Origin: a virus
Lineage: Duplodnaviria > Heunggongvirae > Uroviricota > Caudoviricetes
DNA: 40,286 bases
Direction: 5' to 3' (one strand)
IMG/VR virus record: IMGVR_UViG_2541047822_000001
Coordinates: 1-40,286 of that record
In this document: in pieces, positions 1,369-16,590 of the stretch
Numbering within the stretch: the stretch's first letter is position 1
Layout: each line of letters starts with the position of its first letter
Notes under the pieces: generated by a model
Database searches by the model: none
What the model was told of the DNA's origin: nothing
Seen by the model: only the letters and a program-made list of their open reading frames with translations
Position numbers and translations under genes: made by a program

Positions 1369-1444
1369 GCCGATATAGCTCAGTTGGTAGAGCAGCGCAT
1401 TCGTAATGCGAAGGTCGTAGGTTCGACTCCTATTATCGGCACCA
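1369..1444 (+). tRNA. thrW: tRNA-Thr, anticodon CGT
   Basis: 76 nt GCCGATATAGCTCAG...GGTTCGACTCCTATTATCGGCACCA; acceptor stem GCCGATA/TATCGGC, anticodon loop TTCGTAA, T-loop GGTTCGACTCC, 3' CCA encoded. Sits directly downstream of proA as thrW does in E. coli. Confidence 0.9.
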
Positions 1445-5003: not shown

Positions 5004-5207
5004 TTAACCTCCAGATTTCCGCGCATCTAAAGGCGCATTCTCATTTGGTGTGAACTGAATAGTTGTGCTGATATTGATTAATGCCCCGACACACAAGACT
5101 ACGCACTCAGAGCAGATAGCAACTTCATCTTTTCCGCCTTTGGCGATGATTTTTTTTGCCTGCAGCTCGTTTGCGCCACAAAACGAGCATGTGAAATAAC
5201 GGTTCAT
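5004..5207 (-). CDS. small protein with ClpX-type C4 zinc finger (~67 aa)
   Basis: MNRYFTCSFCGANELQAKKIIAKGGKDEVAICSECVVLCVGALI matches the N-terminal zinc-binding domain of ClpX (CSFCGK...KLIAG...ICDECVDLC). Second in-frame ATG at 5207 has an AAGAGAG Shine-Dalgarno. Confidence 0.6.
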   Translation of the reverse strand: MNRYFTCSFCGANELQAKKIIAKGGKDEVAICSECVVLCVGALINISTTIQFTPNENAPLDARKSGG

Positions 5208-5303
5208 TTGCGCTCTCTTACACATAGTATTTAACGAATCATCCGGTCATTCATACGCCACCGGCGGCTACTTCGTGGGCGTCCTGCCTGTTCGTTGTTT
5301 TAA

Positions 5304-5357
5304 CACCTTTAAGTTGTAATTTAGTTGTGGTTTTGAATGTTGTCAACAACTTTATGT
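5304..5357. promoter_or_regulatory. OL-like operator cluster
   Basis: CACCTTTAAGTTGTAAT (5304..5320) and ACAACTTTATGT (5346..5357) recur in the cI/cro intergenic region (CACCTAAAAGTTGTGAT at 7024..7040; ACAACTTTATGT at 6999..7010). Half-sites AAGTTGT/ACAACTT are reverse complements. Confidence 0.5.
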
Positions 5358-5409
5358 GGTTTGAACGAGTAGCCAAGGAGTGCAAGGATTATCAAAAAAA
5401 GGAGGTTGT

Positions 5410-6300
5410 ATGGAAGACGCGCTTTACGCTTTTAATTACACACAGAACCGGGACAAGTTATTTGCTAACTTGATTAGCATCATTGATGGAATTATTGCAG
5501 ATGGAGTTGTCCGTGAAGAGGAGGTTCTTTACTTAGATACATGGTTACTTGAAGCAAAGCAGATTATCAATAATGGAGTTATAAAAAGTCTATCAGCACG
5601 GGTGTCGGATATTCTTGCAGATGGAATAATCACATCAGAAGAACGTGATGACCTTAAAAATAGCCTTCTCCAAATACAGAGGGAAATTCTTGATATCCCT
5701 GAAATTGATTTTTACTCCAAGGATGTAGATGTCCATTTACTTAATGGACTATGTAAAGGATTAATTGCTGATCGGAACTTAACTCAAGAAGAAATAAGAT
5801 ATCTTAATTGGTGGCTTGAGCAAAATGGAGCTTTGAAGAACAACTACCCAGGAAAAAAACTTTATGCACTTGTAAAGGAAATTCTTAAAGATGGTGTTAT
5901 TACTGAAGATGAGAGTTTAACTCTACATAAGGCATTAGTAGACTTCACAGGATGTGACTTGGAAAGTGGAGTGGTGGATGGTTTGGCGACCAGGCTGCCT
6001 ATTGATGTAGGGGCTTCGATAGAGTTAGAGGGTAAAACCTATTGTCTTACAGGCACTTTTGTTGCAGGAAAGAGAGCCGTAGTTGAAAATTTGATTAAAA
6101 ATGCTGGTGGGAACATCAGTAGTGGAATTACTCAAAAGTTGGATTTTTTAGTAATTGGGACGCTTTCCTCCCGTGATTGGAAATTCTCAAGTCACGGAAG
6201 GAAGATCGAAAAGGCTATATCTTATAGGGATGATAATGGTGCAAAACTTAAAATTATTTCTGAAGAAATGCTTTTCGATGCATTACCAAGTTCGCGATGA
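5410..6300 (+). CDS. accessory protein: four TerB-like repeats plus C-terminal BRCT domain (296 aa)
   Basis: ATG at 5410 with AAAGGAGG Shine-Dalgarno (track begins at an upstream GTG). Repeats IADGVVREEEVLYLDTWL / LADGIITSEERDDLKNSL / IADRNLTQEEIRYLNWWL / LKDGVITEDESLTLHKAL; C-terminus LEGKTYCLTGTFVAGKRAVVENLIKNAGGNISSGITQKLDFLVIG...AKLKIISEEMLFDAL fits the BRCT pattern of NAD-ligase C-termini. Visibly AT-rich. Confidence 0.8.
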   Translation: MEDALYAFNYTQNRDKLFANLISIIDGIIADGVVREEEVLYLDTWLLEAKQIINNGVIKSLSARVSDILADGIITSEERDDLKNSLLQIQREILDIPEIDFYSKDVDVHLLNGLCKGLIADRNLTQEEIRYLNWWLEQNGALKNNYPGKKLYALVKEILKDGVITEDESLTLHKALVDFTGCDLESGVVDGLATRLPIDVGASIELEGKTYCLTGTFVAGKRAVVENLIKNAGGNISSGITQKLDFLVIGTLSSRDWKFSSHGRKIEKAISYRDDNGAKLKIISEEMLFDALPSSR

Positions 6301-6969
6301 CCAGAATACCCTACCTATAACATGAATTCTGGCTCGTCTATCTTCAAAGGTGAGTATTTCATCTGGGTACTCATCTTTGTTGAAGCTTCTAAGAATCAAG
6401 CCACCGTCAGGTAAGTTGATAAGTATTTTAACCCTTAGCAATACACCATCTCGTACGGCATAAAGATCGCCATCACGAATAGGAACGGTTTGAGAAATAT
6501 CAACGGCAACAAGATCTCCATTATTGAGAACCGGTAATAAACTGTTCCCCCATATTTTTACGATCTTGGCATTAGATGCACATACGCCAGATTTTCTCAA
6601 ATCTGCTCTTCTTAATGGAAACCAGTCAATAGCTGATTCAACTATTTCAGCCAGACATCCGTTACCTGCCGATAACTCGACATCTAAAACAGGAATGTTT
6701 ACGAAAATATCGGGGTCTAATGCGGTGCTTTCTGCTTCTTTTACAACAAGATCAGGTATGGATGCGTTGTCTTCAATACCAAGTTGTAACCACTTTTGTG
6801 ATACACCTAAAACTTTTGCAATTTCTTTAATTTTGCGCGGTTGTAGAGTTTCGCCATTCTCTATTTTGGCTACAGATTGTTGTGAAAGTCCAATTTTTTC
6901 AGCTAGTTGAGCTTGGCTCATGCCAGCTTTCTCTCTACCTATCTTTAATCGTTCTGCCAGTGTTTTCAC
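6283..6969 (-). CDS. cI: CI-like repressor (HTH_XRE + S24 LexA-like peptidase)
   Basis: N-terminal HTH (LAERLKIGREKAGMSQAQLAEKIGLSQQSVAKIENGE) and C-terminal S24 autocleavage domain (...GNSLLPVLNNGDLVAVD...). GTG start at 6969 preceded by GAGGG; diverges from cro across an operator-rich gap. Confidence 0.9.
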   Translation of the reverse strand: MKTLAERLKIGREKAGMSQAQLAEKIGLSQQSVAKIENGETLQPRKIKEIAKVLGVSQKWLQLGIEDNASIPDLVVKEAESTALDPDIFVNIPVLDVELSAGNGCLAEIVESAIDWFPLRRADLRKSGVCASNAKIVKIWGNSLLPVLNNGDLVAVDISQTVPIRDGDLYAVRDGVLLRVKILINLPDGGLILRSFNKDEYPDEILTFEDRRARIHVIGRVFWSSRTW

Positions 6970-11896: not shown

Positions 11897-12892
11897 GTGA
11901 CCGTGAGAGCACTACTGACCCCTGAAATTGCCCCGCGTATGGGGATCGTATTGTTCAGGCCAGGTTCAGAGCTGATGCCCCTGTTTATGCAGGGGCGTGT
12001 CCTGCTGGAGCCTGAGCCGGAGCGTTATTCATCTTTCGCCAGTGGTGCCGTTCCGGCAGCATCACAACCGCTGGCGGATGATCCTGCCGTTCGGGCCGTG
12101 TTCCGCAATGAGGCAGTGATCCGTCGTGCTGGTGGCGTGGAATGTCTTGAAAGCTGGTTACTTCGTGAAAAAGGCTGCCAGTGGCCTCATTCCGACTGGC
12201 ACAGCGAGAACATGACCACAATGCGGCACGCGCCGGGCGCAATCCGTCTGTGCTGGCACTGCGATAACCAGTTGCGCGATCAGTTCACGGAACGGCTGGA
12301 ATCAATGGCAACGGATAACTGTGCCCGCTGGGTGTTATCTGTTGTGCGCCGTGATCTCGGTTTTGATGATAGTCACGTTGTGACAATGCCGGAACTGTGC
12401 TGGTGGCTGGTTCGTAATGACCTGGCGGATGCCTTACCGGAAAGTGCAGCCCGTAAGGCACTGAGATTACCGAAGCCTGTTGTGCCGTCTGTTACCCGGG
12501 AAAGTGACCTTGTGCCTTCGGTTCCTGCCACCAGCATCATCCAGGATAAAGCGAAAAAGGTGCTGGCGCTGAAAGTGGATCCGGAGTCGCCGGAGTCTTT
12601 TATGTTACGCCCAAAACGTCGCCGCTGGGTTAATGAAAAGTACACGCGCTGGGTTAAGACACAGCCGTGTGCATGTTGTGGAAAGCCTGCTGATGATCCC
12701 CACCACCTGATAGGTCACGGTCAGGGTGGAATGGGAACAAAAGCGCATGACCTCTTTGTGTTGCCTTTGTGCAGAAAGCATCACGACGAGCTGCATGCGG
12801 ATACCGTGGCATTTGAAGAGAAGTATGGCTCCCAGCTGGAGCTGATATTTCGTTTTATCGATCGTGCGCTGGCAATAGGCGTACTGGCGTAA
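11897..12892 (+). CDS. DUF968 domain protein
   Basis: C-terminal Cys/His cluster RWVKTQPCACCGKPADDPHHLIGHGQGGMGTKAHDLFVLPLCRKHHDELH is typical of DUF968 proteins found in lambdoid prophages. Confidence 0.8.
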   Translation: MTVRALLTPEIAPRMGIVLFRPGSELMPLFMQGRVLLEPEPERYSSFASGAVPAASQPLADDPAVRAVFRNEAVIRRAGGVECLESWLLREKGCQWPHSDWHSENMTTMRHAPGAIRLCWHCDNQLRDQFTERLESMATDNCARWVLSVVRRDLGFDDSHVVTMPELCWWLVRNDLADALPESAARKALRLPKPVVPSVTRESDLVPSVPATSIIQDKAKKVLALKVDPESPESFMLRPKRRRWVNEKYTRWVKTQPCACCGKPADDPHHLIGHGQGGMGTKAHDLFVLPLCRKHHDELHADTVAFEEKYGSQLELIFRFIDRALAIGVLA

Positions 12893-12905: not shown

Positions 12906-13658
12906 ATGAACCTTGAAGCCTTACCAAAATATTACTCCCCAAAATCTCCAAAATTGAGTGATGACGCACCGGCGACAGGCTCGGGTGGTTTAACAATTAC
13001 AGATGTGATGGCTGCGCAGGGGATGGTGCAGTCGAAAGCACCGCTTGGGTTTGCCTTATTCCTGGCAAAAGTTGGTGTTCAGGATCCTCAGTTTGCGATT
13101 GAAGGTCTGCTCAATTACGCGATGGCACTGGATAACCCGACATTGAATAAATTGAGTGAAGAAACCCGGCTACAGATCATTCCTTACCTTGTGAATTTTG
13201 CCTTTGCTGATTATTCCAGATCTGCGGCAAGTAAGGCTCGCTGTGAGCATTGTGCAGGTACGGGATTTCATAATGTATTGCGCGAAGTGGTGAAACACTC
13301 CAGAAACGGGGAATCTGTTATCAAGGAAGAGTGGGTGAAGGAACTATGTCAGCATTGTCATGGTAAGGGAGAAGTCAGCACAGCGTGCAGAGGGTGTAAG
13401 GGTAAAGGTATTGTCCTGGATGAAAAAAGAACCCGGCTTCATGGCATGCCTGTTTATAAGATTTGTGGGCGTTGCAATGGAAACCGGTTTAGCCGTTTAC
13501 CAACCACACTGGCGCGGCATCATGTCCAGAAGCTGGTACCAGACCTGACGGATTATCAGTGGTACAAAGGATATGCAGATGTCATTGATAAACTGGTGAC
13601 AAAGTGCTGGCAGGAAGAAGCATATGCTGAGGCGCAATTAAGAAAAGTGACGAGATAA
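12906..13658 (+). CDS. late-gene antiterminator Q-like protein
   Basis: Cys-rich zinc-finger region (CEHCAGTG...CQHCHGKG...CRGCKGKG...CGRCNGN) and position just upstream of the late/lysis genes, followed by a promoter-plus-terminator arrangement. Confidence 0.65.
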   Translation: MNLEALPKYYSPKSPKLSDDAPATGSGGLTITDVMAAQGMVQSKAPLGFALFLAKVGVQDPQFAIEGLLNYAMALDNPTLNKLSEETRLQIIPYLVNFAFADYSRSAASKARCEHCAGTGFHNVLREVVKHSRNGESVIKEEWVKELCQHCHGKGEVSTACRGCKGKGIVLDEKRTRLHGMPVYKICGRCNGNRFSRLPTTLARHHVQKLVPDLTDYQWYKGYADVIDKLVTKCWQEEAYAEAQLRKVTR

Positions 13659-13689
13659 ATGATTTTCGCCGAATATAGCGACATGATTC

Positions 13690-13718
13690 TTGCATTTTTC
13701 AAAAAATCTGGTTAGGAT
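13690..13718 (+). promoter_or_regulatory. candidate late promoter (pR'-like)
   Basis: TTGCAT (13690..13695), 17-nt spacer, TAGGAT (13713..13718), about 30 nt after Q and ~50 nt before a terminator hairpin. Hexamer match only. Confidence 0.3.
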
Positions 13719-13768
13719 TTTCCTAACGATGGGCTTTGTATGTCTGCCGTTAACGAAATCATAACAAA

Positions 13769-13789
13769 CCTCGCTTCGGCGGGGTTTTT
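13769..13789 (+). terminator. intrinsic terminator (tR'-like)
   Basis: CCTCGC-TTCG-GCGGGG hairpin (one G-U pair, UUCG tetraloop) followed by TTTTT. Confidence 0.55.
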
Positions 13790-14130
13790 GCTTTTCTGGA
13801 GGGTAAGAAAATGCACCAGTAAACGGATAGACCGCAGCCGATAGGCAAATCCGCAGTCGTGATGCGGTCCCGAGTCTCCATGAGAGCCAGATGCAGGTAC
13901 GAACTGCAACACACACTGGTTAGGGTTAATAAAGAAGAGGTGTGCCGGTACTCCAGAACGATCGCCAATCGTTCTCCGGTTAGAGGTGAGGGATTCATGA
14001 GATACCCCTGACTACGGTCTCAAAGGCATGAGCGCGGCCACTGCGAGAGTGTGGTAAGCAACAGAATAGTAATTCACAGGCCCCTTATGTAAATGCTATA
14101 AAAGCGGACTATTGAAAAGGAGAGTTCGCT

Positions 14131-14772
14131 ATGTCAAAAACCTTTGAGCAAATGAAACTTAATTTTATTTATTTGCACGAATTATGGTTGTTAACTCATT
14201 CGATAAAAACACGCTGTGAAGAGCTCTTTCATGAGACACCACTTCCTGATGCTGGTTACTACTTTAAAATTGATTACAATATTCATATATTAATAAATAG
14301 CATTCTTTCAGATGCGGCTAACGTCAAGAAACTAATCGCAGTTCCTAAAAATAAGACTAGGGAAGAATCCCCTGAACAATTCAGATTGCATATTGAGCGA
14401 AGTAATTACCTTCAACAAAAAATAAAAGATATTGAAATTAAGGAAATTAATTCCGTGAGGGTGAGAAACACCTTGCAACACTTCGATGAGTATTTAGATC
14501 AGCTAAACATTGATGTTACAGCAGGGAAGATGAAAGGTCATGGTATTGCAGTTTATAATTTTGTGATCTCCCACTGGAAGGCAATCAACCCTAGGCCATA
14601 TCCGATAAGGTTATATGTTTGTGAGGAAAAAACATACTATAATATGAAGGCGTCAATTAACTTAGAAAAAGTTTACAATGAGGCTTTTCAGGTTAATGAG
14701 GTAATCCGTAAAGAAATAAATAAAGAAGCTGGTGCAGAGCCTGGTAGCTTTATGGTTCCTTTAAACTTTTAA
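14131..14772 (+). CDS. AT-rich moron protein, unknown function (213 aa; possible HEPN-like R-x4-H motif)
   Basis: AAGGAG Shine-Dalgarno; strongly AT-rich; sits between Q and the holin where lambdoid phages carry cargo; own terminator immediately downstream. Contains RNTLQH, an R-x4-H pattern. Confidence 0.75.
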   Translation: MSKTFEQMKLNFIYLHELWLLTHSIKTRCEELFHETPLPDAGYYFKIDYNIHILINSILSDAANVKKLIAVPKNKTREESPEQFRLHIERSNYLQQKIKDIEIKEINSVRVRNTLQHFDEYLDQLNIDVTAGKMKGHGIAVYNFVISHWKAINPRPYPIRLYVCEEKTYYNMKASINLEKVYNEAFQVNEVIRKEINKEAGAEPGSFMVPLNF

Positions 14773-14792
14773 ACTTTATAATTCTATTAACT

Positions 14793-14816
14793 GCCCCGTA
14801 ATAGCGGGGCTTTTTT
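14793..14816 (+). terminator. rho-independent terminator of the moron
   Basis: GCCCCG-TAATAG-CGGGGC hairpin followed by TTTTTT, 20 nt after the stop codon. Confidence 0.8.
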
Positions 14817-14932
14817 ATTTCAGGATCACGGGAATCATCCGTTACGTGCTTTGTTGATATATCCAGCCCGTGAAGCCTGAGCCTATTTCCCCTCATACCT
14901 GAGAGGACTCACAGCAATTAAGAGGGGGCTAA

Positions 14933-15319
14933 ATGTCCGATCCGATTTCCGGTACTGGGCTGGCTGGTGGTGCCCTGACGGGTGCCAGTGTTTATGGACT
15001 GCTGACCGGAACTGATTACGGCGTTGTATTTGGCGCATTTGCAGGGGCTGTATTCTACATAGCAACAGCAGCAGATCTGAGTGCATCGCGCCGACTGGCA
15101 TATTTTATCGTGTCATATATTGCCGGGATTCTTTGCTCTGGGTTGGTTGGCTCCAAGCTGGCGAACTTGACCGGATACAGTGATAAACCTCTGGATGCTA
15201 TTGGTGCCGTAATCGTCTCTGCTTTAGCCGTTAAAATCCTGACGTTCCTGAATAATCAGGATATCGGCTCGCTGGTGGCGCTCATAACGCGCCGGGGAGG
15301 TTCAGGTGGAGCTAAATGA
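14933..15319 (+). CDS. putative holin
   Basis: 128-aa Gly/Ala-rich membrane protein with 2–3 predicted transmembrane segments, first gene of the lysis cluster. Confidence 0.6.
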   Translation: MSDPISGTGLAGGALTGASVYGLLTGTDYGVVFGAFAGAVFYIATAADLSASRRLAYFIVSYIAGILCSGLVGSKLANLTGYSDKPLDAIGAVIVSALAVKILTFLNNQDIGSLVALITRRGGSGGAK

Positions 15320-15587
15320 CCCGACAGCAACTATAAATGCGCTGTTATGTGCTTGTGTTGTTATTACTCTGATGTTTTATCGTCGTGGTGATTCGCGGCA
15401 TCGTCCTTGGGTTTCACGTTTAGCCTGGCTGATTACTGTTACATACAGTGCTGTTCCGTTGGCCTATCTCTGTGGGATTTATCCCCATTCCTCATGGCCC
15501 ATTATCGTGGCGAACACTATTTTTCTTTCCGTGCTGGTGGCCGTCAGAGGCAACGTTGCACGTCTGATTGATCATCTGAGGCACTAA
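15306..15587 (+). CDS. putative holin/antiholin-like membrane protein
   Basis: 93 aa with hydrophobic segments; GTG start with GGAGG Shine-Dalgarno; overlaps the preceding gene and abuts the endolysin. Confidence 0.55.
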   Translation: MELNDPTATINALLCACVVITLMFYRRGDSRHRPWVSRLAWLITVTYSAVPLAYLCGIYPHSSWPIIVANTIFLSVLVAVRGNVARLIDHLRH

Positions 15588-16201: not shown

Positions 16202-16590
16202 AGATAAGTTATTTGGCGCTCATTTTAACGTTTATTGCTTGTGTTGCTGGTGGTCTTGTCTGGTCAGCGAATCACTATTATGGAAAGTTTCTGGAGGAGC
16301 AGAAGCGTGCTGACGCTGCGGAACAGCGAGCTGATTCTACTGAGGCTATCACCGAGAATGTTCTGCGTACTATGGCAATAACGAACATCATTCAGGAGGC
16401 GAATCAACATGCAAAACAGCAGATCGCACTGGAGTCACAGAGAACCCAGGAAGATATCAAAGTGGCTATTGCGAATGATGATTGCGCTTCACGTCCTGTG
16501 CCTGCTACCGCTGCTGACCGGTTGCGGAAGTACGCGGACAGTTTACGTGAATACACCGGCGGTACTACTGCCAACCAGCCTGACTTCTGA
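16198..16590 (+). CDS. i-spanin (Rz-like)
   Basis: N-terminal signal-anchor (MKISYLALILTFIACVAGGLVW) followed by a charged helical periplasmic domain; ATGA overlap with the endolysin stop. Confidence 0.75.
   Translation: MKISYLALILTFIACVAGGLVWSANHYYGKFLEEQKRADAAEQRADSTEAITENVLRTMAITNIIQEANQHAKQQIALESQRTQEDIKVAIANDDCASRPVPATAADRLRKYADSLREYTGGTTANQPDF

Follow-up and report, generated by a model that had tools for sequence, protein, structure and literature searches.

A moron of a lambdoid prophage encodes a probable solo HEPN nuclease of a new, unannotated family

Introduction

Which kind of cargo sits between the late-gene antiterminator Q and the first holin gene of a lambdoid prophage, and what might it do there? 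We address this question for a lambdoid prophage of E. coli, IMG/VR virus record IMGVR_UViG_2541047822_000001, of which positions 1 to 40,286 were analysed. This whole stretch of 40,286 nucleotides is called the window in the following. Its gap of 1.27 kb between Q and the first holin gene holds an open reading frame (ORF), 14131..14772, which encodes a protein of 213 amino acids (aa). An initial annotation of this DNA had described the ORF as part of a self-contained, AT-rich moron and had taken the sequence RNTLQH in its product as a hint at an HEPN-type RNase. We find that the ORF is real, mobile, solitary and conserved, that the motif is conserved as well, and that the predicted fold is compatible with an HEPN domain. 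The ORF product thus probably represents a new, unannotated family of solo HEPN nucleases that is borne by a moron. A conserved structured RNA, located upstream of the ORF, is treated after the protein and its cassette.

Results

The cassette comprises the following features:

14049..14885 (+): moron insert proper, from blastn breakpoints, alignment and a GC content of 0.36
14073..14102 (+): candidate sigma-70 promoter of the moron, read from the sequence
14117..14122 (+): Shine-Dalgarno sequence AAGGAG of the ORF, located in the sequence 8 nt ahead of the ATG
14131..14772 (+): 213-aa ORF, probable solo HEPN-superfamily RNase
14464..14481 (+): RNTLQH, R112 to H117, putative catalytic Rx4H motif, R and H each kept in 118 of 119 homologues
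14793..14820 (+): intrinsic terminator of the moron, GCCCCGTAATAGCGGGGC plus T6ATTT, called by scan

A conserved protein family with an Rx4H motif

An initial search with the ORF product yielded 28 relatives, which come from E. coli, Citrobacter, Enterobacter and Kosakonia. When 1.84 billion representatives were searched with a profile, the family grew to 246 clusters, 59 of them at E <= 1e-30, which range over Enterobacterales, Bacillota and Actinobacteria and are nearly all 205-250 aa in length. Members from Klebsiella, Yersinia, Salmonella, a Bacillota metagenome-assembled genome and Paenarthrobacter are all annotated as 'hypothetical'.

Conservation was counted in 119 homologues with 19-70% identity to the query. 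R112 is retained by 118 of them and H117 likewise by 118, and the position following the arginine carries N (104 cases), H (11) or D (3). Other conserved residues are R90 (118), D123 (117), Y14 (111), D119 (110), E17 (109) and Y162 (109), and the family consensus around the motif reads V-R-N-S-L-E-H-F-D-E-Y-L-D. A single Rx4H pattern is expected 0.33 times by chance in one protein of such composition, and its lone occurrence, on which the initial hint at HEPN had been based, is therefore unremarkable. Its conservation across the homologues is beyond chance, and in this respect the hint gained weight, as it did from the position of the motif in the kinked four-helix bundle described below. In HEPN domains, the residue after the arginine is 'mostly N, D or H', and the arginine and histidine form the RNase active site (PMC3710099). 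The family shows both a conserved motif of the Rx4-6H type and the polar residue (N, D or H) next to the arginine.

The predicted fold is compatible with an HEPN domain

The AlphaFold model of the 213-aa protein, computed from the 119-sequence alignment, reaches a predicted local distance difference test (pLDDT) value of 96.2 and a predicted template modelling (pTM) score of 0.91. It supersedes an earlier model from 19 sequences with a pLDDT of 72. A helical core of approximately residues 11-130 is followed by a domain of beta-sheet and helix (140-195). The core consists of helices 11-35, 49-69 and 81-97, a short turn at 104-107, and a last helix (110-116/118-130) that is broken exactly at H117, while the C-terminal part has four strands within 140-177, a helix at 178-195 and a tail of lower confidence. 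The predicted model thus presents a four-helix bundle with the motif at a kinked helix, and kinks or distortions at the motif have been reported for HEPN domains, 3jrt included (PMC3710099).

The top structural neighbour of the model in the PDB is this same HEPN protein, 3jrt, with 8-11% sequence identity. A Foldseek search against viral structures returned a single match, an uncharacterised protein of a Gordonia phage. Cas13a, an HEPN RNase, was the sole PADLOC system whose models were matched by several family members (5 and 3 members; weak matches, best E = 9e-4). Taking motif and model together, we consider it quite probable that the helical core is an HEPN domain.

The cassette fits a classical moron

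Composition, mobility and signals support the description of the cassette as a classical moron, with a terminator called by the scan and a candidate promoter. The ORF has a GC content of 0.34 versus a window mean of 0.51, and equally low values are found in 0.4% of 642-bp segments. Phage mEp237 carries 13781..14887 at 98% identity, flanked by a different Q and a different holin. A prophage of E. coli 2017C-4173W12 with a closely related lysis region matches 13782..14048 and then continues from 14886 (blastn), which identifies 14049..14885 as inserted cargo. Presence and absence at one site among related phages thus go along with a deviant composition. The cassette is rare, with most of it present in 7 out of 5426 complete E. 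coli genomes. Across the ORF stop codon runs a tandem repeat of 8 bp, TTTAAACT (14760..14777, 2.2 copies); mEp237 has one copy more, which explains the difference of 8 bp in length between the two cassettes.

The terminator hairpin (14793..14810) has seven pairs, six of them G-C, and its T-run reaches 14820. Just inside the insert, TTCACA (14073..14078), an 18-nt spacer and the extended -10 element TGcTATAAA (14094..14102) form the candidate promoter. It was not called by the scan because the scan rule demands a T at position 6 of the -10 element. The AT-richness relative to the neighbouring genes, the strong Shine-Dalgarno sequence and the clean intrinsic terminator, all pointed out in the initial annotation, are borne out. 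The notion of a self-contained moron is likewise supported by the block shared with mEp237, the empty site in the related prophage, the cassette's own ribosome site and terminator, and the plausible promoter.

Relatives of the protein are solitary genes in accessory positions

In the six homologue groups examined, the homologues are solitary and have no recurring partner gene. Those in other lambdoid prophages occupy accessory slots, either between Q and holin or between lysis and terminase genes. In Enterobacter and Yersinia prophages, for example, they are located between the lysis genes and HNH/terminase genes. Distant homologues stand alone, beside an integrase or among housekeeping genes. 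Two further observations concern these contexts. One slot is common to defence-like and anti-defence cargo in the loci L008 to L011. In the Enterobacter prophages, an ORF of 485 aa without a Pfam match comes after the homologue (L012, 6801..8258); this ORF is absent from the other contexts.

A conserved structured RNA upstream of the moron

The initial annotation had regarded 13790..14130 as plain spacer. This had to be revised, since most of it belongs to an independent conserved RNA that is supported by covariation:

13787..14062 (+): conserved structured RNA of approximately 276 nt, covariance model, 298 bits
13798..13803 and 13811..13822 (+): Shine-Dalgarno sequence GGAGGG and mini-ORF ATG CAC CAG TAA (MHQ-stop), at the 5' end of the RNA

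The RNA has a normal GC content (0.53), and other prophages without the ORF carry it at 73-90% identity. Compensatory changes are visible in an alignment of six sequences. The covariance model was built from these six, and a 24-nt pattern from the 3' end of the RNA was used to gather further loci. The pattern occurs in at least 120 viral contigs and in 50 stretches from approximately 45 Enterobacterales species genomes, Kluyvera, Citrobacter, Enterobacter, Morganella, Xenorhabdus, Pectobacterium and Edwardsiella among them. The model gave 99 matches in 99 viral loci, and nearly every locus holds a single full-length copy of 245-285 nt.

Across 94 distinct copies, 86.9% of cells pair, 34 out of 50 pairs are changed on both sides, and the compensatory cells number 306 versus 86 +- 8 in shuffles (reached by 0 of 500) and 23-43 with the partners slid; the alignment was fitted to the model, which inflates pairing, and the slid controls and the multiple pair types are nevertheless strong. 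At one pair, for example, AU occurs 50 times, CG 28 times and UA 3 times. The mini-ORF layout, i.e., a Shine-Dalgarno sequence, a start codon, zero to four codons and a stop codon, is present in 60 of 78 distinct copies (77%) versus 3.4% of shuffles, and the codons vary.

Upstream of the RNA we find Q antiterminators, spanins, cI-like repressors, an Acb2-like gene or endolysins. The cargo on its downstream side is in all cases variable, and in 92 loci it falls into 54 unrelated protein clusters. No copy of the RNA accompanies the homologues of the HEPN-like protein in other phages, and the RNA contains no tandem repeats. Both facts argue that it is not a private regulator or antitoxin of the ORF.

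Two other explanations of 13800..14100 were tried and rejected: A tRNA remnant was ruled out, as ARAGORN gave no match, and a short protein was dismissed, as the 50-aa ORF 13859..14011 is broken by a 2-nt indel in a homologous copy. A search of Rfam 15, including STnc100, AgvB, AsxR, C4 and tRNA, was negative at the gathering threshold, and likewise within the RNA when the limit was relaxed to E <= 10. No paper with the sequence or a description of the RNA was found in the literature, where a keyword search gave only the unrelated Pas, STnc100 and StxS small RNAs (sRNAs). As far as these searches show, the RNA is undescribed, and of the two results it is more surprising than the protein.

To judge by its neighbours, the RNA appears to mark the 5' boundary of cargo slots. 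Whatever cargo follows may be influenced in cis, for example via ribosome loading, insulation or transcription through cargo terminators. The RNA may also be a conserved landing pad for the exchange of cargo cassettes. It may matter more than the protein, and the expression or exchange of morons could find an explanation in it. A separate observation was made in a prophage of E. coli OW1E2 (L023, 2292..2620), where the RNA lies in the Q-holin gap and ends 3 nt before a tRNA-Thr gene.

Gene order around the slot

The genes and signals that flank RNA and moron are the following:

11897..12892: DUF968 gene, ahead of Q
12906..13658 (+): late-gene antiterminator Q, Pfam PF03589, E = 1.7e-54
13690..13797 (+): Q-linked late promoter region and tR', terminator by scan, promoter by eye
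14933..15319 and 15306..15587 (+): two holins, Pfam PF16931 and PF05449
15587..16201 (+): GH19 endolysin, Pfam PF00182
3' of the endolysin: spanin-sized ORFs

The Pfam calls of Q, holins and endolysin confirm the placement of the gene between Q and holin. A promoter and a terminator had also been proposed at 13690..13789. The terminator part stands: The tR' hairpin (13766..13787) with its T-run is called by the scan and has a fold z of -2.7. The promoter, in contrast, is a weak match recognised by eye and not called by the scan, with the hexamers TTGCAT (13690-95) and TAGGAT (13713-18) at a spacing of 17 nt. In the region, the scan finds 5 terminator-like sites versus 1.4 expected. The segment 13659..13815 is present at 94-97% identity in more than 140 E. 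coli genomes without the ORF, and the pR'/tR' module is therefore tied to this type of Q.

Other features of the window

A second AT-rich island (16511..17410, GC approximately 0.31-0.38) follows just after the spanin-sized ORFs. It contains ORF 16810..17148 (-) of 112 aa, in the position of bor in lambda, which gave no significant match in Pfam, PHROGs, NCBIfam or PADLOC. The third AT-rich island, 5271..5980, is another accessory slot. Its ORF 5380..6300 (+) encodes 306 aa with a C-terminal BRCT domain (E = 1.4e-6), and its 3' end overlaps convergently with the end of a cI-like repressor gene, 6283..6969 (helix-turn-helix plus S24 peptidase). A 73-aa protein made of a ClpX-type C4 zinc finger (PF06689, E = 1.5e-10) is encoded at 5004..5225 (-). 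The sole tRNA of the window, tRNA-Thr (CGT) at 1369..1444 (+), may be the prophage attachment site.

Discussion

Proposed role of the protein

Our tentative reading, to which we give slightly less than an even chance, is that the ORF encodes a stand-alone HEPN RNase of an unannotated family, most likely one that would act in abortive infection or superinfection exclusion. The closest functional precedent is HepS of the Salmonella prophage Gifsy-1 (PDB 9OIJ/9OIK; Sargen et al., Nature 2026, PMC13043305), which acts in abortive infection as a solo HEPN protein. HepS has approximately 205 aa, an R100-x4-H105 motif and no partner, and is constitutively present as an inactive tetramer. When siphoviruses infect, their tail-tip protein J opens the tetramer, and HepS then cleaves tRNA anticodon loops (PMC13043305). 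That the protein studied here cleaves RNA, is expressed in the lysogen, responds to a trigger and acts in defence is our inference.

In the proposed mechanism, the N-terminal four-helix bundle would hold the catalytic R112-N-x3-H117 at the kink of its last helix, with the conserved E17, R90, D119 and D123 close by in sequence. The C-terminal four-stranded sheet and helix (140-195) would likely be the sensor or regulatory part. Candidate promoter, ribosome site, ORF and terminator would form a cassette inserted in the Q-holin slot. Since the cassette brings its own signals into this slot, the lysogen may produce small amounts of the protein, and read-through driven by Q may give rise to it again once the prophage is induced. 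It would persist as a latent oligomer, inactive until a component of an infecting phage is sensed. The activated enzyme would then cut tRNA or other RNA and halt the infection, following the logic of HepS.

A wider claim is that two undescribed neighbours meet at this locus: a solo HEPN family with its own C-terminal sensor, serving as an abortive-infection (Abi) switch with a trigger unlike that of HepS, and an RNA class of approximately 270 nt with a mini-ORF at the 5' edge of cargo slots. In this full form, we regard the claim as possible but rather doubtful.

Evidence against an abortive-infection nuclease

Several observations weigh against a solo HEPN nuclease that protects the lysogen. 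None of the 119 members has an HEPN match in Pfam even at E <= 10, and the Pfam scans at E <= 0.01 and E <= 10 gave scattered one-off matches only. PHROGs, NCBIfam and PADLOC scans of the ORF product returned nothing significant. Sequence searches of the PDB, whether started from the protein itself, from the full-length profile or from a profile of the helical domain, found only spurious coiled coils of GCN4 and adhesins. These empty searches agree with the early statement that the product belongs to no recognised family. The check for an HEPN fold that had been suggested along with it returned an HEPN protein as the top structural neighbour in the PDB and no significant match to an HEPN family.

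With respect to expression, the moron promoter was recognised by inspection by eye alone. In three other phages, promoter and terminator calls near the homologues do not exceed chance, and lysogenic expression is therefore not given family-wide. Expression may be chiefly late and lytic. Furthermore, a homologue with 56% identity is located 70 nt 3' of an Acb2/Tad1-type anti-defence gene in a lysis-terminase gap (L008, 5638..6657; also L009-L011).

Alternative explanations

The latter points are those on which a late function would build. Here, an HEPN-type RNase would serve the phage late in infection, in host shut-off, RNA processing or counter-defence, and would be transcribed mainly from pR' under Q. 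The ORF indeed lies within the late operon, downstream of Q, pR' and tR', and the homologues of Yersinia, Enterobacter and other prophages sit between lysis and packaging genes with promoter and terminator calls at chance level. The homologue next to the Acb2/Tad1-type gene fits as well. Yet in the window the ORF comes with a terminator of its own and a plausible promoter of the extended -10 type, and it is dispensable and rare, as its occurrence in 7 out of 5426 complete E. coli genomes indicates. To our knowledge, no HEPN anti-defence protein has been described, which also counts against a late function. The prophage-borne HEPN proteins characterised so far are defence proteins or toxins (PMC13043305, PMC3710099 and general knowledge). 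We therefore hold a late function to be unlikely.

A similarly small chance is left to a helical bundle that is not a nuclease. Its conserved R, H and D would serve binding or some other chemistry; examples are regulators, metal-dependent hydrolases, and sponges or inhibitors that target a host system. Such a protein would have to retain the exact R-[N/H/D]-x3-H signature, which is 99% kept among sequences of only 19-70% identity. It would also have to carry this signature at the kinked helix of a predicted four-helix bundle whose top structural match in the PDB is an HEPN protein.

A toxin of an addiction or stress-dormancy module, with an antidote not yet recognised or with the upstream RNA as a type III-like RNA antitoxin, appears quite improbable. 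Integron-cassette HEPN proteins, to which the nearest structure 3jrt belongs, have been proposed as dormancy RNases (Anantharaman et al., PMC3710099), and RNA and ORF travel as a single 1.1-kb block in the window and in mEp237. However, no context holds a conserved partner gene, and the RNA, which is not a tandem-repeat array like ToxI, is missing beside the homologues in other phages and precedes 54 unrelated cargo families in its approximately 100 loci. A type III toxin-antitoxin unit of RNA and ORF is rejected, as tandem repeats are lacking and the RNA occurs without the protein just as the homologues occur without the RNA.

Significance

Should the protein of this moron prove to be an active solo HEPN nuclease, the single-gene phage defences would gain a family of 246 clusters that is invisible to Pfam, PADLOC and NCBI annotation. 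How a lone HEPN enzyme is silenced and triggered, a question opened by HepS, could then be tested in a second, unrelated case. The Q-holin 'toxin slot' of lambdoid phages would also carry immune cargo.

Comparison with known systems

Classical lambdoid morons are bor and lom of lambda, as well as stx in the Q-S slot; the definition of a moron reportedly goes back to Juhala, Hendrix and coworkers in 2000. The cassette shares with them the presence or absence at a fixed site, the deviant composition, and an own terminator and likely own promoter within the late operon. It differs in its cargo, a putative RNase instead of a toxin or membrane protein, and in that its promoter is a candidate.

The upstream RNA resembles StxS and PasD (STnc100/PasD), sRNAs of the Q-holin region, in being encoded on the late-operon strand just after tR'. 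Compared to StxS, STnc100/PasD and AgvB/AsxR, it is far larger, with 245-285 nt and approximately 10 helices, and unlike the sRNAs of the Q-holin region it is also found after Rz, after cI and after Acb2. Like the bar minigenes of lambda, the RNA has a Shine-Dalgarno sequence followed by a minigene of one to three codons. GOLLD and ROOL RNAs often adjoin tRNA genes. Such an adjacency was seen here in one prophage, and the RNA is far smaller than GOLLD and ROOL.

Among HEPN proteins, the HEPN-MNT toxins (7ae2, 5yep) and the lactococcal AbiD/AbiF/Abi_2, AbiJ and AbiV differ from the family in several respects: No MNT or other partner is present here, the Pfam HEPN and Abi models match 0 of the 119 family members, and the C-terminal domain is a different one. 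Vpc_cass2 (PDB 3jrt; PMC3710099), an integron cassette HEPN protein, shows 8-11% identity and no profile match. With 166 aa, it is without most of the C-terminal extension of the ORF product, and it resides in an integron cassette instead of a phage moron.

HepS, whose gene is absent from the Gifsy-1 prophage of LT2, differs in its location and in sequence. In Gifsy-1 the slot is the replication-antirepressor region, whereas here it is the Q-holin gap, and HepS carries I107 where the ORF family has the conserved D119. The common features are a single HEPN-type protein of approximately 205-215 aa with Rx4H near residue 100-117, encoded by a solitary gene without a conserved partner, as seen here in all six homologue groups. 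Both proteins occupy an accessory slot of a lambdoid prophage and have homologues from Bacillota to Enterobacterales.
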